Positions 1 through 8,147 of a stretch of 10,174 nt of DNA are shown here, piece after piece. Made by a program: the position numbers and the translations under genes. Source of the DNA: a virus (Duplodnaviria > Heunggongvirae > Uroviricota > Caudoviricetes); IMG/VR virus record IMGVR_UViG_2548876862_000020; one strand, written 5' to 3'. Numbering within the stretch: position 1 is the first letter of the stretch; every line of letters begins with the position of its first letter. The notes beneath the pieces were generated by a model. That model was given only the letters and a program-made list of their open reading frames with translations. It ran no database searches and had not been told where the DNA came from.

Positions 1-1251
1 GTGCTTACCGATACAAAATTAAAAAACCTCAAGCCGCAGGACAAACTGTACAAGGTCTCCGATCGTGACGGGCTGTATGTAGCTGTGCTTACGTCAGGCA
101 CGGTCTCGTTTCGCTATGACTACCGTATCAACGGTCGCCGCGAAACACTGGTAATCGGGCAGTATGGGCGTGACGGTATCAGCCTGGCAGAAGCGCGAGA
201 AGAACTGATTGCTGCAAAGAAGCTGCTTAAAGCAGGCCAGTCGCCGGCTGCGGCTAAACGTGACGGTATCAAAAAGATTCGTGGTGCCGAGACGTTTGCG
301 GTACATACCGACAGTTATATGAAACACGTCATCCTGGCTGACAGTACCCGCGCAATGAAGCAGACGGTGATCGACCGTGACATACTTCCGGTTCTTGGCA
401 ACAAAATGATGGCTGAAATTACCACATCGATGGTTCGTGATTTGTGTGACCGGATTGTCGAACGCGGTGGTCGGGCAACAGCAGTACAGGCCAGGGAAAT
501 CATCAGCAGCGTATACCGTCACGCCAATGACCGTGGTCATGGTTTGTTTAATCCTGCGGCTGACATTAAACCTTCGTCTATCGCCATATTTAAACCACGA
601 GAGCGAACACTGACACCAGAAGAAATTGGCCTGTTCTTCCGCACGCTGGATGCCATTGGTGCTATGGGCACTATGAAAATGGCTTTAAAGCTGGTGCTTA
701 TCACTATGGTTCGTAAAGGCGAATTCACCAATGCAACGTGGGATGAAATAGATTTTAAAAAATGGACATGGACAATTCCTTCAGACCGCATGAAGGGAAG
801 CCGGGCGCACGTTATTTACCTGCCTAAACAGGCACAGGATATATTGGTTGGGTTGCAGATGTGCGCTGGTGGAAGTGAATATCTGGTTCCTGGTCGTTAC
901 AATTTTCGGAAGCCATTATCTAATGCCGCGCTGAACTCTCTGATCGACAGAACGGTGAAAATAATAAATGAAGATGGTGAGCATATTCAGGGCTTCACCG
1001 TACACGATATGCGCCGTACAGCCAGTACGTTGTTGCATGAGGCTGGTTATCCTTCAGACTGGATTGAAAAGGCTATGGCACATGAGCAGAAAGGTGTGCG
1101 CGCCGTATATAACAAAGCGGAATACGCCAGACAGCGCGCCTACATGTTGCAGCAGTGGGCCGATATGATTGATTCCTGGATTAACAGGGAGCATACGGAT
1201 CTGATTCCGTTCTCCCCGTCGAAGTTTGAGAAGTGGATGGCGGGGGAATAA
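1..1251 (+). CDS. int: Phage tyrosine integrase, P4/IntA-like family
   Basis: 416-codon ORF from GTG at position 1. C-terminal region shows tyrosine-recombinase signature (MVRKGEF, HDMRRT, VRAVYNKAEY with candidate catalytic Tyr). N-terminus LTDTKLKNLKP resembles P4-type integrases. Start coincides with the window edge, so a few codons may lie upstream. Confidence 0.9.
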   Translation: MLTDTKLKNLKPQDKLYKVSDRDGLYVAVLTSGTVSFRYDYRINGRRETLVIGQYGRDGISLAEAREELIAAKKLLKAGQSPAAAKRDGIKKIRGAETFAVHTDSYMKHVILADSTRAMKQTVIDRDILPVLGNKMMAEITTSMVRDLCDRIVERGGRATAVQAREIISSVYRHANDRGHGLFNPAADIKPSSIAIFKPRERTLTPEEIGLFFRTLDAIGAMGTMKMALKLVLITMVRKGEFTNATWDEIDFKKWTWTIPSDRMKGSRAHVIYLPKQAQDILVGLQMCAGGSEYLVPGRYNFRKPLSNAALNSLIDRTVKIINEDGEHIQGFTVHDMRRTASTLLHEAGYPSDWIEKAMAHEQKGVRAVYNKAEYARQRAYMLQQWADMIDSWINREHTDLIPFSPSKFEKWMAGE

Positions 1252-1254
1252 CGT

Positions 1255-1449
1255 TTAATAGTTCTGCTGATTTTCTTCCATCTCTGCTTCTGCTGCCAGT
1301 GATTCAATTTTGTTTTCGAATATTGCTGACAGTGTTGCAAATTCAGCATCAGTGACAGCGGGAATTGGAACAAACCTGATCCCGCTGTGTGCAAGCATGT
1401 TTGCAGTTTCAAGGCATTTTCTTAAATCTGCTGGTGATGCCCTGTTCAT
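1255..1449 (-). CDS. Hypothetical small acidic protein (64 aa), translationally coupled to the methyltransferase
   Basis: Internal ATG at 1449-1447 of track ORF 1255..1569 overlaps the methyltransferase TGA stop (1448-1446) as ATGA. GGGAG sits 8-9 nt upstream. Stop lies 3 nt from the convergent int stop. The longer 104-aa form would overlap 120 nt of the methyltransferase gene and was not preferred. Confidence 0.5.
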   Translation of the reverse strand: MNRASPADLRKCLETANMLAHSGIRFVPIPAVTDAEFATLSAIFENKIESLAAEAEMEENQQNY

Positions 1450-2096
1450 GCAGCACGCTCCCGCCCCTGGTTGTCTGTTGGTGACAGCGGAGAATTGCTG
1501 AATGCATTTGTTAATCCGCCAATATCCAACGCGTATCCAGGGTGTAGTTGCACTGCCGGGTCTTCGCACTGATTACCCCAAACATCGAAGCCATGAGACG
1601 ACTGGCGGGCGAATAGTTCAATGCGAGAAACATCGCCTAACAATTGCACAAGTTTTTCACGAACGACATCTGGTTTTCTTGAGTGCTCAAGCCGCGGTGC
1701 GGTAAATGACTGAACGATCCCTGCATTAATGCGCGGAGGTAGTTTTCCCTTTACCGCAAACAGGCAATCTTCACTATTGGCGCGAGTCATGTGTCCCATA
1801 CCCATAACCAGTTTATCTGGTTGTCGACTACCACATTTTATCCACGTGAATCCCTTCATGGTCATCAGACGGAATCCCCAGGCTTCAACAACTTTTAGTG
1901 CTTCGAGTGGTTGTGTTGGCACCCACCACATGGCCAACAGACAGTTTTCATCGGCCAAATCCCACACAGGAAGGCGGCAGATATCCAGCACACTCATAAC
2001 CGGATATTTAAAACCGGCACCGCGATTACCATCTGCGGCTTTATCCCGGTATACCCAGGGTGGATCTGCATAGATTAGCGTGTATTTCTTAGTCAT
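1446..2096 (-). CDS. Orphan N6-adenine DNA methyltransferase, MT-A70 family
   Basis: 216-aa ORF with N-terminal IYADPPW (DPPW catalytic motif of MT-A70-type amino-methyltransferases). No adjacent restriction endonuclease gene. Lies in the prophage left arm, as do Dam-like methylases of Stx-type phages. Confidence 0.85.
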   Translation of the reverse strand: MTKKYTLIYADPPWVYRDKAADGNRGAGFKYPVMSVLDICRLPVWDLADENCLLAMWWVPTQPLEALKVVEAWGFRLMTMKGFTWIKCGSRQPDKLVMGMGHMTRANSEDCLFAVKGKLPPRINAGIVQSFTAPRLEHSRKPDVVREKLVQLLGDVSRIELFARQSSHGFDVWGNQCEDPAVQLHPGYALDIGGLTNAFSNSPLSPTDNQGRERAA

Positions 2097-2388
2097 AAAC
2101 CACCCCGCAACATCCTATGCCGCTATAGTCGCCACGGCGAAGGCCGTTACCTTTTGTGATACATTGGTCCCTGCGAACCGCGATCCTTGCACGCTCAACA
2201 TCACCAGAAGCAACATCCATACACTGAAGCCAAAGGTGGGCAGCAATGCGGAACTGCCCTTTTTTCTCTCTTTCAATCGCGCGTTTTTCGATCTCTATCG
2301 CCGCAGGAGTAACGGCAACAACCTTTGAAGGGCTGCGCATTGAAACCTTGTTCATGTGATATTTTTCAAGTCGGCTTAACTTTCTCAC
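2089..2388 (-). CDS. Hypothetical basic protein (99 aa) with C-terminal Cys cluster; first gene of the methyltransferase block
   Basis: ORF with GTG start at 2388 preceded by GAGAGGG. Its 3' end overlaps the methyltransferase start by 8 nt. Arg/Lys-rich, ends in GIGCCGVVYD. Family not recognised with confidence (possibly ANR-like small regulator). Confidence 0.5.
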   Translation of the reverse strand: MRKLSRLEKYHMNKVSMRSPSKVVAVTPAAIEIEKRAIEREKKGQFRIAAHLWLQCMDVASGDVERARIAVRRDQCITKGNGLRRGDYSGIGCCGVVYD

Positions 2389-2497
2389 TTAATCCAACCC
2401 TCTCTGAAAATTAATGCCAGCAGATAAAGCCATGCTGAAACAGAGGCCAGGAATAAGTACCATCCTGACCATTTGCTCCAGTGCCTTAGCAGCACAC

Positions 2498-2746
2498 TCA
2501 TGCCGCGTTGCTCACAGGACGATATACACGTTGCTGAACAGGAGGTTTTTTACCCTGGAACTCTGCCGGGCTTGCTGCCTGACGTTCATCAAGCCAACGC
2601 TCAACTTCATCACGGTTCCATGCGCAGCGTTTGTCAGTGATATACCAGCGTTTAGGAAATTCCCCTGCGCGCTCCATACGGTCGATAGTGCTCCATGACA
2701 GTGGCACCACCGCCAGGAGTTCCTTCTTACCTAATGCACCTTTCAT
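2498..2746 (-). CDS. AlpA-family HTH protein (prophage regulatory / excisionase-like)
   Basis: 82-aa ORF with ATG at 2746 preceded by AGAGAGG. Segment LLAVVPLSWSTIDRMERAGEFPKRWYITDKRCAWNRDEVERW matches the AlpA/Vis-type winged-HTH pattern. Confidence 0.7.
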   Translation of the reverse strand: MKGALGKKELLAVVPLSWSTIDRMERAGEFPKRWYITDKRCAWNRDEVERWLDERQAASPAEFQGKKPPVQQRVYRPVSNAA

Positions 2747-2795
2747 AAATACCTCTCTTGGTTGCAGTGCGGCGCGCGTGGCGCCGCGGTGGTGG

Positions 2796-3677
2796 TTACA
2801 TAGATGTTTCGTTTAATTCTTCCCGACGAACGCTGTAAACGTCGGTGGCTTTTGCCAGCAGTTCGTCATCATCTGAAAGTTTTTGTGCAATGTATTTGTA
2901 AGCCTTATCCAGTTCGGAGACAGTGCTGTAATTCATCGCTGCGCTGGTAAAGGCCATCAGCATTTCTTCTGGATCACGGCTATCCGCTTTACGCGTTTGC
3001 TCATCATGCTTTTTCGCTGGTTTAGCGTTGATCAGACTGTTCATTCCCGCAGCAGTAGTCGTTTGCGGAGTAATGTCTCGCTCAACGCGCGGTGCCGTTT
3101 CCTGTAATTCGTCAGGGGTGTAAACACCGAGAAGCACATCAGGAGCGTGCAGGCGAGCCCATCGTTTCGTGCAAAGATAGGCAAGCTGCTGGCGCGGATC
3201 CTGTTCCCACAATGGAGAGTTACGCACTCCGGCTTGCGCCATACTGATGGTAAGCTCACGGGGTTCTGCTTCTCCTTTAAGAACTGCTGACACAGTTACC
3301 GTCAGATTCGGTGATTTATCTGTTTTGCCGTTAACATTCGACCAGTCACCGCTCCAGCGATAATTCAGGCGTGTCGCTAGCAGGCTGGAAGAGGATACGA
3401 CCGCGTTTACCAACTGTGCTTCGTAGCCTAACGTTCCGTTTACCACATGCGTTTTCTGCGCCACGGCGAAAGGGTTCATTCCCCACTGTGCCGCCTGCAT
3501 GGTCACCGCCAGACAATCGGAAGGTTTGCCTTCAAGATGTTTCGGTACAGTCGCTTTGCTTTGTGACATCAACTCCGCGAAACGCACCAGTTGATTCATG
3601 CCCTCGGGGCTGAAGATTGCCGCAGCAGTGCCTACAGTTGCGCCTGGTTGTGATGTGATTGCGATATCATTGCTCAT
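2796..3677 (-). CDS. recT: RecT/Bet-family single-strand annealing recombinase
   Basis: 293-aa ORF. Segments MQAAQWGMNPF and RVERDITP resemble lambda Bet / RecT. Start ATG overlaps the upstream exonuclease stop as ATGA (3677-3674). Confidence 0.85.
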   Translation of the reverse strand: MSNDIAITSQPGATVGTAAAIFSPEGMNQLVRFAELMSQSKATVPKHLEGKPSDCLAVTMQAAQWGMNPFAVAQKTHVVNGTLGYEAQLVNAVVSSSSLLATRLNYRWSGDWSNVNGKTDKSPNLTVTVSAVLKGEAEPRELTISMAQAGVRNSPLWEQDPRQQLAYLCTKRWARLHAPDVLLGVYTPDELQETAPRVERDITPQTTTAAGMNSLINAKPAKKHDEQTRKADSRDPEEMLMAFTSAAMNYSTVSELDKAYKYIAQKLSDDDELLAKATDVYSVRREELNETSM

Positions 3678-4495
3678 ACATACATATCCTGTTTACGTGC
3701 CCAGTCAGGGCGTTTAATAATTTCCACTCCGCCCCATTCATCGTTGATGCGGCATTCGTGATAGGTATTCAGATCCCGGCGGAACAGAGCGTGCCCGGCA
3801 TCGACATCCTGCGCATCCAGCTCGAACACGCGTACCGGATACCGACCACAATCAATGCTTTCGCTCACGGCAAGAAAGAAAAAACCATGCGTCTGACCAG
3901 TAACCCTCATTGCGCCTTCGCGGTACATTGCGTCCTGCACGTGGTAGCGGAATTCCTCGATGTGGCGTGCAAAACGGTCCATATCTGCAACCTTTTTCAC
4001 GTCGACGATCACGTTGTGCTCGTTCAGCCATTTGTCTGGACGAATGCGGCACAACTCACCAGTATCTTCATCGTTCCAGTACATTGATGCTTCGCAGTAA
4101 CCAGGTGCTTCCAGCATCCAGCGTGCCGCCGGGTGAGCCATTGCGCTATCACGCATCAGCTCCAGTTTCCGCCACTGCTCGGCATCAAGTACCGTAATCC
4201 CCATATCCGCCACATCACGAAGAAATGCCTCTTCGTCAGCTTTACCTTGTTTCGTCCGACGATCGAATTTCGGTGAAACAATGAAGCGTTTGTCGAACTC
4301 TCCAGGCTCCAGAAGCAGACAGTGCAATGCGGTTCCCATATCCAGTGCAGACTTTTTCTCTTCGTCTTCTGGTGCTGCCTGAACCCATTTAAGAAGCGCC
4401 GGATTCTTGGCAACCATGTCCAGTTGCGACTTACTCACGCCGTCACCTGCGTGGTAGTCTTCGTTGCTGATGTCGAAATAAATTCCCGGTTTCAT
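3674..4495 (-). CDS. RecE-like short-form exonuclease (exonuclease VIII-like, PD-(D/E)XK fold)
   Basis: 273-aa ORF starting MKPGIYFDISNEDYHAGDGVSKSQLD, typical of prophage short exonuclease VIII-like proteins. Candidate D...E-x-K nuclease motif around RPDKW...VDVKK. Paired and translationally coupled with recT. Confidence 0.8.
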   Translation of the reverse strand: MKPGIYFDISNEDYHAGDGVSKSQLDMVAKNPALLKWVQAAPEDEEKKSALDMGTALHCLLLEPGEFDKRFIVSPKFDRRTKQGKADEEAFLRDVADMGITVLDAEQWRKLELMRDSAMAHPAARWMLEAPGYCEASMYWNDEDTGELCRIRPDKWLNEHNVIVDVKKVADMDRFARHIEEFRYHVQDAMYREGAMRVTGQTHGFFFLAVSESIDCGRYPVRVFELDAQDVDAGHALFRRDLNTYHECRINDEWGGVEIIKRPDWARKQDMYV

Positions 4496-4791
4496 GCCGC
4501 GTCCCTCTGCCCATCAAGCTGATCTGCCAGATCCCAGCGCGCTATAATTGCCATTGCCTCGCGCCGGTAGGCATCCATCAGTTCTTCGAACTCAGGGCTG
4601 TCTTTAGCAGCCTCCAGCACTTCCTGACGAACGCCTTTGCCTGTTACAACGTCGAAAGTTGAGGACAGTTGATGGAGTCGGATGCTCTCAATCAGTTCAA
4701 CTTGTCGGTCATATAGCTGTTCTGACAGGCGGTAGTCCTTGTCGAATGCCAGCATGATTTTTTGAAGATTTTTCTGCTGATTAACGTTCAT
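4492..4791 (-). CDS. Hypothetical protein (99 aa) immediately upstream of and coupled to the exonuclease
   Basis: ATG at 4791 preceded by GGGAGGG at 6-nt spacing. Stop overlaps the exonuclease start as ATGA (4495-4492). Track start at 4806 lacks an SD. Confidence 0.55.
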   Translation of the reverse strand: MNVNQQKNLQKIMLAFDKDYRLSEQLYDRQVELIESIRLHQLSSTFDVVTGKGVRQEVLEAAKDSPEFEELMDAYRREAMAIIARWDLADQLDGQRDAA

Positions 4792-4793
4792 TA

Positions 4794-4946
4794 TCAGCCC
4801 TCCCATATCTCGTTATCGTTGGCTACATCGCGAGCTTCTTTGCTGACGAAAGCCCACTTAATGCCTTCCTGTAAGGTGCGGAACTTCCAGCTCATGAATC
4901 CGCATGCAGCAACGCAGTACCAACCGTTGATGATTTTCCACTGCAT
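4794..4946 (-). CDS. Small Trp-rich ORF (50 aa), first gene downstream of pL
   Basis: Hand-translated, not in ORF track: MQWKIINGWYCVAACGFMSWKFRTLQEGIKWAFVSKEARDVANDNEIWEG. ATG 4946 preceded by GAGGT at 8 nt. E. coli-like codon choice. Its 3' end supplies the SD for the next gene. Confidence 0.35.
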   Translation of the reverse strand: MQWKIINGWYCVAACGFMSWKFRTLQEGIKWAFVSKEARDVANDNEIWEG

Positions 4947-4965
4947 AACTTGTTACCTCGGTCTG

Positions 4966-5042
4966 TTACCGTTGAGGTAATGATTATGCGTATCTGGTTT
5001 GATGTCAATAGATATGAGTTAAAAAAATTACCCATAAGGTAA
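4966..5042 (-). promoter_or_regulatory. pL-like promoter flanked by two operator palindromes
   Basis: Minus strand reads operator TTACCTTATGGGTAA (5042-5028), 19 bp, -35 TTGACA (5008-5003), 17-bp spacer, -10 AATCAT (4985-4980), operator TTACCTCAACGGTAA (4980-4966). Operator centres are 62 bp apart. Confidence 0.6.
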
Positions 5043-5052
5043 TCTTGCTGGC

Positions 5053-5079
5053 AATAAAAAAGCCGCCATGAGGCGGCTT
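5053..5079 (-). terminator. Rho-independent terminator downstream of the repressor gene
   Basis: GC stem gccgcc (5062-5067) / ggcggc (5072-5077), extendable by 2 A-T pairs, with 4-nt loop. Followed on the minus strand by UUUUAUU. Lies 21 bp after the repressor stop. Confidence 0.7.
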
Positions 5080-5099
5080 ACTTGCTGAAAACTATAGTT

Positions 5100-5708
5100 T
5101 TATTGTTTGCTTTTTTCGTTCTGGTTGATGACAAATTCAATGTAACTTTCGATCTTTGCTTTCTCGGTTTCGGGTAACAATGCGTAGCGCGAGCGGTCAT
5201 AGTTGATAGTCGCAGGGTCGTGCGGGTGAATCAGTAGTTCATATCCGTGACGCCCGAATGCGGATGCAACATTCTCCAGGGTGGAAATGGAAACGCTGAC
5301 CTCATTGTTTAACAGGCGGCTGATTGTCACCTGGGCGACGCCGGATGCGCGGTGAAGTTTTCCCTGCGTTGAAAGGTCGCGGCTTTCGCTCATCCAGCGT
5401 TCCAGGTTGTGAGCCGCCAGCTGACCAATGTCGCTTGGTCCGACAGGCTGAAAACCTTCCTGAGAAAGCGAGCGATCGATATCAAGCCAGTTACGGGGTT
5501 TATTGGCGGCAGCTTCAATTTTTCGCGCAACCTGGTCGCCGATAACCTTCTTGCCAAGAGCCCAGCGGTTTACCAGATTTGCCTGAGTTCCAAGTTTTTC
5601 TGCCATCCGCGTCTGAACACCATTGAATTCACGGTCGATCAAGTCGTTGAGATTTTGCCTGCGGACGTCCTGGATACTTTTCATTTTCTGGAAAATCGCC
5701 TCATACAT
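5100..5708 (-). CDS. Prophage immunity repressor (CI-like position) with two HTH domains and no apparent S24 peptidase domain
   Basis: 202-aa ORF divergent from the cro-like gene across the operator region. N-terminal HTH (QTRMAEKLGTQANLVNRWALGKK) and a second XRE-type HTH (SGVAQVTISRLLNNEVSVSISTLENVASAFG). No room or motif for a LexA-like Ser/Lys autocleavage domain. Confidence 0.75.
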   Translation of the reverse strand: MYEAIFQKMKSIQDVRRQNLNDLIDREFNGVQTRMAEKLGTQANLVNRWALGKKVIGDQVARKIEAAANKPRNWLDIDRSLSQEGFQPVGPSDIGQLAAHNLERWMSESRDLSTQGKLHRASGVAQVTISRLLNNEVSVSISTLENVASAFGRHGYELLIHPHDPATINYDRSRYALLPETEKAKIESYIEFVINQNEKSKQ

Positions 5709-5739: not shown

Positions 5740-5813
5740 TTACCCAACAGGTAAATGCACCCCATAGGTAACTATCCTTGATTTTTGTTACCTTATGGGT
5801 GAATATTTATTAT
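5740..5813. promoter_or_regulatory. OR-like operator/promoter region between repressor and cro-like genes
   Basis: Three palindromes: 5740-5754 ttacccaacaggtaa, 5757-5771 gcaccccataggtaa (degenerate), 5788-5802 ttaccttatgggtga. Candidate pR: -35 TTGTTA (5785-5790), 17 bp, -10 TATTAT (5808-5813). Candidate pRM on minus strand: -10 AATCAT (5724-5719), a few nt before the repressor ATG. Confidence 0.55.
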
Positions 5814-5838: not shown

Positions 5839-6069
5839 ATGAGCGATAACGGACATTTCGATTTCAAAAAGCACTGGCTTGCACTTACTCCGGATGAGCG
5901 TGAAGCCTTCGCACAGGAAGCCGGAACGACGAGTCACTATATCCAGACTCACTTAACAGGTAAGCGCAAAATGCCAGGTAAAGTATTGATGAATGGGCTT
6001 TTTAAAGCCTGTAAATCAAGACAATGGTTGCGCTCAAAAGCAGAACTGGCATACTTCTTCTACTCATGA
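5839..6069 (+). CDS. Cro-like HTH regulator (YdaS/Cro-type)
   Basis: 76-aa ORF divergent from the repressor. HTH-like segment LTPDEREAFAQEAGTTSHYIQTHLTGKRKMP. Occupies the cro position. Confidence 0.65.
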   Translation: MSDNGHFDFKKHWLALTPDEREAFAQEAGTTSHYIQTHLTGKRKMPGKVLMNGLFKACKSRQWLRSKAELAYFFYS

Positions 6070-6090: not shown

Positions 6091-6114
6091 AGACCGCCAT
6101 CCGGCGGTCTTTTC
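6091..6114 (+). terminator. Intrinsic terminator after the cro-like gene (tR1-like position)
   Basis: Stem agaccgcc (6091-6098) / ggcggtct (6103-6110), loop atcc, followed by TTTT (6111-6114). Confidence 0.6.
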
Positions 6115-8070: not shown

Positions 8071-8147
8071 TTACCTGTTGGGTAATAAAATATTCTAAAA
8101 TCTATTGATTTCGTGTCTTATGTGGTTTTTAATTACCTCAGGGGTAA
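8071..8147 (+). promoter_or_regulatory. Third operator-flanked promoter (p3) upstream of the DUF1064-like gene
   Basis: Operator TTACCTGTTGGGTAA (8071-8085), 19 bp, -35 TTGATT (8105-8110), 17-bp spacer, -10 TTTAAT (8128-8133), operator TTACCTCAGGGGTAA (8133-8147). Same spacing as pL. Confidence 0.55.

Follow-up and report, generated by a model that had tools for sequence, protein, structure and literature searches.

The convergent junction between a P4-type integrase gene and the leftward gene block of a Uetakevirus phage

Control of P4-type integrases is known to act at the promoters of their own genes. In P4, Int and Vis repress the int promoter (PMC7286903), and in KplE1, IntS and TorI repress intS, whose promoter overlaps attL (PMC2951348). 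In the Staphylococcus aureus phage 80alpha, an antisense architecture makes expression states follow the lysogeny/lysis switch (PMC11087260). Here we analyze a 10,174-nucleotide stretch of Caudoviricetes DNA (IMG/VR record IMGVR_UViG_2548876862_000020), hereafter the window, in which an integrase gene and a minus-strand gene block converge. The original prediction held that the two end 3 bp apart with no terminator between them and that read-through in both directions could couple integrase expression to the prophage switch, a solution different from lambda sib retroregulation.

Gene content of the window and its relatives

Two phages, phiV10 (NC_007804) and ZX5, are each 98.2% identical in nucleotide sequence to window positions 1-3000, and throughout the window the genes match phiV10 gp31-gp46, in unchanged order. 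Identity and gene order thus place the window in Uetakevirus, the phiV10/epsilon15-like temperate podoviruses. The region is carried by 554 of 5426 Escherichia coli genomes (~10% of complete genomes), where the prophage site adjoins guaA, and in prophages with 98-99.5% identity the end of guaA lies 192 nt upstream of int. The attP core of ZX5 has been reported (PMC9782041); that report and the related prophages place att upstream of int. The phiV10 record differs from the window in giving RecT and the nuclease as one fused CDS, while the window has two separate ORFs. The features of the window are collected in Table 1.

Table 1. Features of the window, in order of position
Feature	Position	Strand	Details
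P4-type tyrosine integrase gene int	1..1251	+	416 aa; GTG start at window position 1; phiV10 gp31
Zone of suppressed synonymous variation	1156..1245		int codons 386-415 (last 30 codons)
GC-rich hairpin in last 70 nt of int	1183..1220	-	35-72 nt downstream of convergent stop on leftward transcript
Mosaic breakpoint	1238..1242		Similarity ends 11 nt before int stop; different terminal cassette follows
Junction	1249..1257		int stop TAA, spacer CGT, convergent stop TTA (reverse complement of TAA)
Lambda Orf63 homologue (DUF1382), last gene of the candidate leftward operon	1255..1449	-	64 aa
MT-A70 family adenine methyltransferase	1446..2096	-	Pfam MT-A70, E = 7e-22; phiV10 gp33
PerC-family regulator	2089..2388	-	Pfam PerC; PHROG 868
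First terminator-like site for int read-through	2238..2267	+	GGGCAG-N10-CTGCCC then TTTTTT; antisense within perC (relaxed scan)
Small membrane protein	2385..2501	-	38 aa; phiV10 gp35 annotation at same position
AlpA/Vis-type gene	2498..2746	-	Phage_AlpA, E = 3e-5; PHROG 66 'excisionase and transcriptional regulator'
RecT gene	2796..3677	-	Pfam RecT
PD-(D/E)XK nuclease gene	3674..4495	-	Pfam DUF3799
Two small genes, upstream part of candidate operon	4492..4806, 4794..4946	-	
Putative early-left promoter	5008 to 4980	-	TTGACA-17-AATCAT (promoter scan)
Operator palindromes, perfect	4966-4980, 5028-5042		TTACC-N5-GGTAA; flank early-left promoter
Strong intrinsic terminator	5060..5079	-	8-bp stem and T tract; annotated in phiV10; directly after repressor gene
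Repressor gene, two HTH domains	5100..5708	-	Pfam HTH_3; PHROG transcriptional regulator and repressor families

The int product matches Arm-DNA-bind_3 (PF13356), Phage_int_M (PF22022) and Phage_integrase (PF00589), all above Pfam cut-offs, and is a P4-type tyrosine integrase with its arm-binding N-terminal, central and catalytic domains present. Facing it, the minus-strand genes from 4946 to 1255 form one tightly packed block, whose upstream part (2796..4946) includes members of PHROGs 856 and 898, with stop and start codons that overlap. In the ORF list, the block's last gene appears at 1255..1569; its real start is the ATG at 1449-1447, which shares an ATGA with the MT-A70 stop. The 64-aa product matches DUF1382 (PF07131) at E = 1.8e-30 over 60 of 60 profile positions and PDB 8DSB at E = 8.5e-13, and by these matches it is a full-length member of the lambda Orf63/DUF1382 family. 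Its identification as an excisionase, after the PDB label 'Xis (Excision72)', was ruled out, as 8DSB is lambda Orf63. Judging from its family assignments, the AlpA-type gene probably encodes an excisionase and regulator. The 38-aa product had no match in a Pfam search.

The putative early-left promoter has an operator palindrome on each side. Our search for this palindrome returned 11 matches against 2.9 expected; epsilon15 carries the same palindrome, annotated there as a repressor site, and the half-sites are identical in phiV10 and epsilon15. Between the promoter and position 1255, neither consensus nor relaxed scans detected a terminator-like site on the minus strand, and the strong terminator at 5060-5079 separates the repressor gene from the block. 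The operator-flanked promoter, the packed genes and the terminator-free path to 1255 make it plausible that the block is a repressor-controlled operon, the "pL" operon of the original prediction. The ZX5 paper (PMC9782041) reports overexpression tests of ORF21, which by gene position is probably the counterpart of the window's repressor gene. With Rfam at E <= 1, the one match was a sub-threshold one to SQ2397 at 4934-5152, unrelated to the junction.

The junction and the 3' end of int

Read 5' to 3', the junction is GGG GAA TAA (1249-1251), CGT (1252-1254), TTA (1255-1257). The predicted 3-bp distance between the stops is borne out by the sequence, by the ORF list and by the phiV10 RefSeq record, in which int and the DUF1382 gene (gp32) have the same 3-nt gap and end at 28177 and 28181. 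The identical junction occurs in 373 of the 545 E. coli genomes with this int 3' end. The predicted absence of a terminator was likewise upheld: a consensus scan found no terminator-like site within ~1 kb of the junction, and a relaxed ViennaRNA-based scan found no hairpin with a T tract near it. Neither scan showed an intrinsic terminator, with its GC-rich stem and U tract, in the spacer or directly past either stop. The two opposed units are thus separated by a 3-nt spacer with no terminator-like site, and because no terminator lies in or near this spacer, polymerases from either side must enter the opposite gene. A promoter scan of positions 1-3000 found no promoter-like site and hence no antisense promoter near the junction. 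For read-through from int, the first terminator-like site is the one within perC, and its fold is not distinctive (z -0.9).

The companion claim, that there is no room for a hairpin, is correct for the spacer itself and fails for its surroundings, as a strong hairpin lies at 1183-1220 inside int. As minus-strand RNA, this hairpin folds at -20.6 kcal/mol (z -4.7) and is the third most stable of 6754 45-nt windows. It is kept in 14 of the 15 enteric-clade loci examined (-18.7 to -23 kcal/mol), locus L011 being the one without it. Its helix, of 9 + 5 bp, is short and contains an interruption, and no U tract accompanies it on either strand, where it is followed by UGUUAAUC (minus) and CGAAGUUU (plus). 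Its outer helix is 91% paired and three pairs have changed on both sides; the covariation is weak, with a score reached by 38 of 500 shuffles. No Rfam family matches this hairpin. On the plus strand, a further hairpin downstream of int (1351-1395) is strong in the Orf63-like cassette and was ruled out as a general element, being absent from other cassettes.

The hairpin lies within a stretch of int in which synonymous variation is suppressed. Across codons 386-415, synonymous diversity falls to 0.136 (gene mean 0.320; permutation p < 1e-5), and amino-acid diversity is average, at 0.112. Across 11 genera the stem codons hardly vary, while four-fold sites elsewhere in int vary freely. Two amino acid replacements (N to A and S to A) preserve a base pair in the stem, changing it from A-U to C-G. 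Both the synonymous-site constraint and the conserved hairpin are reported here for the first time, and such nucleotide-level constraint is invisible to annotation by protein homology. Recombinational homogenization at a cassette boundary could also produce low synonymous diversity at this end of int.

Cassette exchange and inheritance of the layout

In about one-third of the E. coli carriers, similarity to the window breaks off within the last codons of int, where matches to the query 1203-1302 stop at its position 37-38. Three different cassettes follow this breakpoint, with gaps of 2, 3 and 31 nt between the convergent stops. In place of the Orf63-like gene, the E. coli variants carry either a NinI-like phosphatase gene (2-nt gap), the cassette present in ML35, or Ant (31-nt gap), which marks the junction as a hotspot for the exchange of terminal cargo genes. 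At the remaining convergent junctions of phiV10, 12 and 65 nt separate the genes. At the same junction, epsilon15 differs in having a different terminal gene and a 154-nt spacer with a hairpin that resembles a bidirectional terminator, indicating that the terminator-less state is not required in the genus.

We assessed the wider distribution of the layout by scoring a locus as abutting when a minus-strand ORF (50 aa or longer) ends within -25..+20 nt of the int stop. Tail-to-tail abutment was found in 25 of 35 homologous-int loci from other species, compared with 14% at random positions in the same loci (binomial p about 2e-14, for loci that are related). Because the loci are related, this excess shows inheritance rather than independent events, and judged from the compared loci the abutting layout is an inherited trait of the integrase lineage. 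The partner of int is Dam, MT-A70 or DUF7740 in enteric loci and AlpA in all seven distant loci. In these distant relatives, int faces alpA and the distance between the stops runs from -23 to +17 nt; where the genes overlap, the overlaps fall in non-conserved protein tails. Of the 40 related junctions, most have no canonical terminator from -60 to +120 nt around the int stop; terminator hairpins are present at the junctions of loci L011, L016, L032, L034 and L035.

Transcription across the junction and known systems

The int promoter and attL lie outside the window, and the region upstream of int was studied in relatives only. In relatives with 98-99% identity, in epsilon15 and in Tyrion, an operator-like palindrome overlaps a -10-like hexamer ~45 nt upstream of int; the hexamer is TATACT in the relatives and TATAAT in epsilon15. 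In the relatives, the hexamer is overlapped by TTACCTTAAAGGTAT, with GACGGTAT / ATACCGTC flanking it, and a strong terminator after guaA precedes both palindrome and hexamer. This candidate promoter combines a poor -35 with a 15-nt spacing, and it went uncalled in the promoter scan. Since P4-type integrases are controlled at their own promoters and an operator-like site is present in these relatives, coupling of int to the switch needs no antisense mechanism.

RNA made beyond each stop codon is untranslated, and untranslated antisense RNA is a classic substrate of Rho, which together with NusG reportedly keeps antisense transcription down in E. coli. At its start, the antisense-int RNA is C-rich, a moderate bias (C/G 1.62, 90th percentile). 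An untranslated, C-rich RNA of this kind would be expected to be stopped by Rho within a few hundred nucleotides unless the phage antiterminates. We know of no antiterminator for this phage group, and an as yet unrecognized antitermination function could override Rho.

We give about an even chance to an account in which the junction is an inherited, compact module boundary with short, Rho-ended 3' overlaps, and int is controlled at its own promoter. Under this account, int would be transcribed from a promoter next to attL/guaA and would meet, tail to tail, the exchangeable last gene of the repressor-controlled leftward early operon. Polymerases crossing the junction in either direction would make untranslated antisense RNA, with Rho as the main agent ending it within a few hundred nucleotides. 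Leftward RNA may then be trimmed back to, or paused at, the 1183-1220 hairpin, a structure that could set the 3' terminus of the left-operon RNA. Short overlaps between the 3' ends of the transcripts are likely at the junction, and when both promoters fire the two mRNAs would overlap by tens to a few hundred nucleotides, at most damping Int synthesis modestly in lytic growth. The main control of int would lie at its own promoter, through the operator-like site and sites for Int and AlpA, as in P4 and KplE1. What we state about transcripts and Int levels, here and below, we infer from sequence; the ZX5 paper (PMC9782041) contains no transcript mapping, and our literature search found no paper combining Uetakevirus with RNA-seq.

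A fuller form of the original prediction assigns the junction a larger part: pL transcripts would run antisense through the whole of int and int transcripts through the methyltransferase block, and the resulting collisions and duplexes would be the main switch-coupling device, replacing lambda sib. Its path is free of terminators in the spacer, between the early-left promoter and 1255 and, as far as any convincing one goes, inside int. The abutting or overlapping layout kept across the int lineage (alpA partners included), the nucleotide-level constraint at the int 3' end and the 80alpha architecture also speak for it. We nevertheless consider it unlikely, as its untranslated RNA would be exposed to Rho with no antiterminator known to us, Int is needed for excision exactly when the left operon is on, and the operator-like site at the candidate int promoter would give direct coupling. 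Moreover, the overlaps in distant relatives fall where neutral drift predicts, and the terminator hairpins of epsilon15 and of the five loci named above indicate that an antisense device is dispensable. The same hairpin and constraint beside the junction could instead point to embedded sib-like retroregulation, in which RNase III would cut the 1183-1220 hairpin or a transcript duplex, yielding a non-stop int mRNA or a destabilized left-operon RNA, so that Int output would follow the active promoters. The epsilon15 GenBank record does place RNase III sites around int, one of them just downstream, but these are predictions and none falls on this hairpin. With a helix this short and interrupted, no Rfam match, and ribosomes translating int that would unwind the plus-strand form, such retroregulation appears very improbable.

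At the other extreme, the junction may be a mosaic boundary whose spacer was deleted down to the stops, with the hairpin and the low synonymous diversity as by-products of codon choice and recombination and with no regulatory role. The exchange breakpoint near 1240, the three cassettes with their different gaps, the tight packing that is general in phiV10, the weak covariation and the failure of the plus-strand hairpin downstream of int to persist across cassettes all fit neutral compaction. We regard it as somewhat unlikely, however, given that the stem codons are near-invariant where other four-fold sites are free, that both replacements in the stem keep the base pair, and that amino-acid diversity is unreduced where synonymous diversity is, the opposite of a simple recent exchange of the whole segment. 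A bolder proposal joins the abutment to the last 90 nt of int, with their constraint and hairpin, as an embedded post-transcriptional module, in which overlapping RNAs from the left operon and/or RNase III would strip the int stop codon and 3' end and tie Int to lysis or lysogeny. Such a module would do the work of lambda sib with convergent genes and would be ancestral to a broad P4-type int/alpA lineage in Proteobacteria; the proposal as a whole strikes us as quite improbable.

A functional overlap would explain how Int levels are set in common guaA-integrating prophages of E. coli and Salmonella that lack an int-xis-sib arrangement, would extend to the wider int/alpA lineage in beta- and gammaproteobacteria, and would add a tail-to-tail case to the few documented prophage antisense switches. 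If the overlap has no function, the junction would be a tidy case of a mosaic boundary at which Rho makes up for the lack of a terminator. On both views a modest but definite practical value remains, in the constraint at the int 3' end and in the cassette hotspot.

The comparison with lambda is one of partial likeness. Int output would depend on sequence 3' of int and on the promoter from which the RNA came, a stable hairpin lies close to the int 3' end, and the partner is a candidate repressor-controlled leftward early operon with an Orf63 homologue. However, int is co-directional with pL in lambda and convergent to the operon here, where it lies on the opposite strand and is not transcribed from the early-left promoter. 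In lambda, sib lies beyond att and is detached in the prophage, whereas in the window att is upstream of int and the sole strong hairpin, inside the coding sequence, stays linked in the prophage and is not separated from int by integration. The layout also resembles tha-ith of 80alpha (PMC11087260) and "excludon"-type units, in that opposed units have no terminator between them, one unit is predicted to be under the prophage switch, and their expression states could become mutually exclusive. In 80alpha, a gene is nested antisense inside an operon, and the overlap, transcripts and phenotype were shown by direct RNA sequencing and genetics; the window has a tail-to-tail end and is known from its DNA layout. 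Compared with P4 and KplE1, the integration target is the guaA 3' end rather than a tRNA gene, and the palindrome, over a candidate promoter outside the window, resembles the phage repressor operator. The window and its relatives otherwise share with P4 and KplE1 a P4-type int beside attL that is transcribed into the prophage in an 'STI'-like shape (int following the target gene), a factor of AlpA/Vis type encoded at another place in the element and, in the relatives, repeated candidate Int sites with a palindrome over the likely promoter.

The int junction and its recurrence in the integrase lineage

The window covers part of a temperate podovirus of the phiV10/epsilon15 type (genus Uetakevirus). 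Its bases 1-3000 share 98.2% identity with Escherichia phage phiV10 and 98.5% with phiv142-3, and phiV10 gp31-gp46 are one-to-one counterparts of its genes. The int gene meets, tail to tail, a minus-strand gene whose product is homologous to lambda Orf63 (PDB 8DSB, E = 8.5e-13; this entry is lambda Orf63, contrary to its deposited name [PMC10869804]) and whose start shares an ATGA overlap with the stop of an MT-A70 methyltransferase gene. The junction reads GAA TAA CGT TTA, which bears out exactly the stop positions and 3-nt spacer described in the original prediction.

Features of the window and of related loci
Feature	Coordinates	Strand	Remarks
int	1-1251	+	Arm-DNA-bind_3, Phage_int_M, Phage_integrase
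GTGACGGTAT copies	170-179, 260-269; 513-522	+; -	perfect
Weak composite structures	near 264-223	-	relaxed scan
int 3' hairpin	1183-1220		GC-rich
int stop	1249-1251	+	sequence read
Spacer	1252-1254		sequence read
Orf63-like stop	1255-1257	-	sequence read
Orf63-like gene	1255-1449	-	64 aa; DUF1382, E = 1.8e-30
Inverted repeat ACAGCGGGA...TCCCGCTGT	1351-1395	both	9 bp
MT-A70 gene	1446-2096
GGGCAG-N10-CTGCCC-TTTTTT	2238-2267	+	antisense to perC
GCGGCGC-N5-GCGCCGC hairpin	2769-2787	both	recT/AlpA-type gap
recT	2796-3677
PD-(D/E)XK (DUF3799) nuclease gene	3674-4495
Left operon	4946-1255	-	ten genes
Rfam SQ2397 match	4934-5152	+	sub-threshold
TTACC-N5-GGTAA	4966-4980, 5028-5042		perfect
Promoter-like TTGACA-17-AATCAT	5008-4980	-	beyond repressor terminator
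Intrinsic terminator	5079-5060	-	strong; directly after repressor gene
Two-HTH repressor gene	5100-5708	-
TTACC-N5-GGTAA	5740-5754, 5757-5771, 5788-5802		divergent repressor/cro-like region
cro-like gene	5839-6069
Intrinsic terminator	6091-6110	+	strong
TTACC-N5-GGTAA	6125-6139		after cro-like terminator
TTACC-N5-GGTAA	8071-8085, 8133-8147		before DUF1064 gene
int-upstream palindrome	L003 2944-2958; L001 7944; L055 283; L007 1444		related loci, outside the window

A survey of one genome per species found an int homologue encoded at 47 loci. Flanks were usable for 35 of these, and in 25 the end of a minus-strand ORF (50 aa or longer) falls -25 to +20 nt from the int stop, compared with 14% of random positions. 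The enteric partners of int are Dam, MT-A70, DUF7740, or small unknown proteins; at each of the seven distant loci tested (Edwardsiella, Oceanimonas, Chromobacterium, Cupriavidus, Phenylobacterium, and Rhodocyclaceae), int faces an AlpA-family gene. The gaps between int and nine AlpA-like genes range from -23 to +17 nt; overlaps in the distant relatives fall within non-conserved protein tails, as expected from neutral drift. Most of the related junctions scanned have no canonical terminator, and a few loci do (L011, L016, L032, L034, and L035). This lineage-wide recurrence indicates that tail-to-tail abutment has been inherited within this int lineage. In the enteric phages, cargo genes appear to have been inserted between alpA and int without loss of the abutment.

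Cassette exchange and constraint at the int 3' end

The region is carried by 554 of 5426 complete E. coli genomes, in which the prophage lies directly downstream of guaA, in the same orientation and behind a strong phage-borne terminator; the attP core has been reported (PMC9782041). A 100-nt probe spanning the junction matches over its full length in 373 of 545 genomes. Similarity in the others ends near position 1240, 11 nt before the int stop, with other cassettes beyond. This distal cargo slot of the left operon (window about 1240-1449) is polymorphic in E. coli: the Orf63-like gene occupies it in about 68% of carriers, and the remainder have either a NinI-like Ser/Thr phosphatase or Ant together with a hypothetical gene (related loci L002 1554-2213; L004 2783-4012). 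The stops are separated by 3 nt with the Orf63-like cassette (window and phiV10), 2 nt with the NinI-like cassette, 31 nt with the Ant cassette, 4 nt in Enterobacter phage Tyrion, and 154 nt in epsilon15, whose spacer contains a bidirectional-terminator-like sequence, AAAAAAGCCCTTACGGGCTTAGTTTGATTT. The exchange breakpoint falls within the last 3-4 codons of int, and the Int C termini therefore differ (…WMAGE versus …WMEDSNK).

The last 70 nt of int contain a GC-rich hairpin, which on the leftward RNA lies 35-72 nt past the stop. Its stability is -20.6 kcal/mol on that RNA (z -4.7; equalled by 0 of 200 shuffles) and -16.1 kcal/mol on int mRNA, ranking third among 6754 45-nt windows on both strands, above the repressor terminator. 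Of 15 enteric-clade loci examined, 14 have the hairpin, with stabilities of -18.7 to -23 kcal/mol, and L011 has no comparable structure at that int position. It is encoded in a ~20-aa C-terminal Int extension (GEHTDLIPFSPSKFEKWMAGE; residues ~397-416; window 1189-1248) confined to the enteric clade and missing from distant relatives; beta- and gammaproteobacterial homologues stop shortly past …WADMVDGWI.

We assessed synonymous diversity in 20-codon windows across 14 enteric int genes from 11 genera. The mean is 0.320, and no window falls below 0.21 before the last 30 codons, in which diversity is reduced to 0.115-0.145 (codons 386-415, 0.136; permutation p < 1e-5); amino acid diversity over codons 386-415 is average, at 0.112. 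Stem codons are nearly invariant (GGG 13/13, GAG 13/13, TTC 14/14, TCC 12/14, and CCG 14/14). The outer helix is 91% paired, and both sides have changed in three pairs, one of them turning A-U into C-G through N-to-A and S-to-A replacements; covariation is weak overall. We read the hairpin as a putative nucleotide-level element, the main alternative being that the constraint reflects recombinational homogenisation at the cassette boundary. If it is such an element, the simplest guess would be that it pauses the leftward transcript or protects its 3' end. The hairpin lacks a downstream U tract on both strands, which rules out a classical terminator, and no Rfam family matches the hairpin. Separately, an inverted repeat inside the Orf63-like gene (dG ~-19), about 100-140 nt past the int stop, is not kept in other terminal cassettes.

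The left operon and possible coupling of int to the prophage switch

ORF calls and the phiV10 annotation place ten genes with overlapping or almost abutting ends in the left operon, among them two small genes and those for the nuclease, RecT, an AlpA-type protein, a 38-aa membrane protein, PerC, MT-A70, and the Orf63-like protein. The promoter-like site ahead of them is flanked by two perfect TTACC-N5-GGTAA palindromes, a motif that the GenBank entry for epsilon15 gives as the repressor binding site. The window holds 11 matches with at most two mismatches (2.9 expected; 11 reached by no shuffle), and the operator-like palindromes cluster at four promoter regions. Terminator scans found no terminator-like site on the minus strand from this promoter to 1255. 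The sole strong intergenic hairpin on the way, in the 49 nt that separate recT from the AlpA-type gene, yields the most stable 45-nt window of the whole sequence, has no U tract, and is annotated in epsilon15 as a "transcriptional pausing" stem-loop. Given the operator-flanked promoter and the uninterrupted minus strand, "repressor-controlled early-left operon" seems a reasonable label.

The recT and nuclease ORFs are separate with a 4-nt overlap, as in E. coli RefSeq prophages, whereas the phiV10 RefSeq record has one fused 1761-nt "RecE-RecT" CDS. A terminator sits directly behind each of the repressor and cro-like genes, and the operator-flanked promoter-like sites of downstream operons come after it, an unusual immunity-region layout. 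The SQ2397 match ("Cis-regulator of HTH transcription factor"; E = 0.12, 28 bits where the gathering score is 100) covers the left-operon promoter and repressor terminator and is probably due to chance.

The original prediction held that the junction has no terminator and that interference between int and left-operon transcripts across it could couple integrase expression to the prophage switch. A consensus scan found no terminator within ~1 kb, and a relaxed scan, which required hairpin dG <= -7 and four or more T among the next 8 nt, found no convincing one around the junction, in agreement with the first point. The first plausible plus-strand site past int lies ~1 kb inside the opposing operon; its fold is statistically undistinctive, and int read-through might end there. 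The minus strand shows just weak composite structures near 264-223. RNA beyond each stop would be untranslated and antisense. The initial 80 nt of antisense-int RNA have a C/G of 1.62, at the 90th percentile for the window, and the ratio exceeds 1 across most of antisense int; plus-strand read-through is C/G neutral over the Orf63-like gene and C-rich from ~1730. Rho and NusG end untranslated antisense transcripts in E. coli, and no antiterminator is annotated for the phage. Since such RNA would be a Rho/NusG target, the 3' overlap would be expected to span between some tens and a few hundred nucleotides, not the whole of int, unless the phage antiterminates.

Coupling could equally act at the int promoter, which falls outside the window. 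In a 99.5% identical prophage, phiV10, epsilon15, and Tyrion, an operator-like palindrome with one mismatch (TTACCYTAAAGGTAT; TTACCTTAAAGGTAT) lies about 45-57 nt upstream of int, overlapping a -10-like hexamer, TATACT (TATAAT in epsilon15), and enclosed by a GACGGTAT/ATACCGTC inverted repeat; a promoter scan called no promoter there. The conserved palindrome over the hexamer points to possible direct control of int by the repressor. Three perfect copies of GTGACGGTAT also lie in the 5' half of int (0.36 expected), and relatives have an extra copy ~60 nt upstream of the gene. In the epsilon15 GenBank record these sites carry the label of integrase binding sites, and the copies may be arm-type sites within coding sequence. 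Together with precedents in P4, whose int promoter is repressed by P4 Int and Vis (PMC7286903), and KplE1, whose intS promoter overlaps attL and is repressed by IntS and TorI (PMC2951348), the operator-like site makes promoter-level coupling at least as likely as antisense coupling.

The junction belongs to an already known phage, and its abutment is an inherited layout. This analysis adds three points: recurrent abutment across the lineage, with distant relatives having int opposite alpA; the cassette breakpoint within the last codons of int; and the constrained, hairpin-bearing int 3' end. The observation behind the original prediction is confirmed, and its premises hold (abutting stops, no terminator, and an operator-flanked minus-strand operon); the interpretation is partly supported. 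The proposed antisense mechanism would be of a known kind: S. aureus 80alpha offers a documented case of an antisense architecture that links expression with the prophage switch (PMC11087260).
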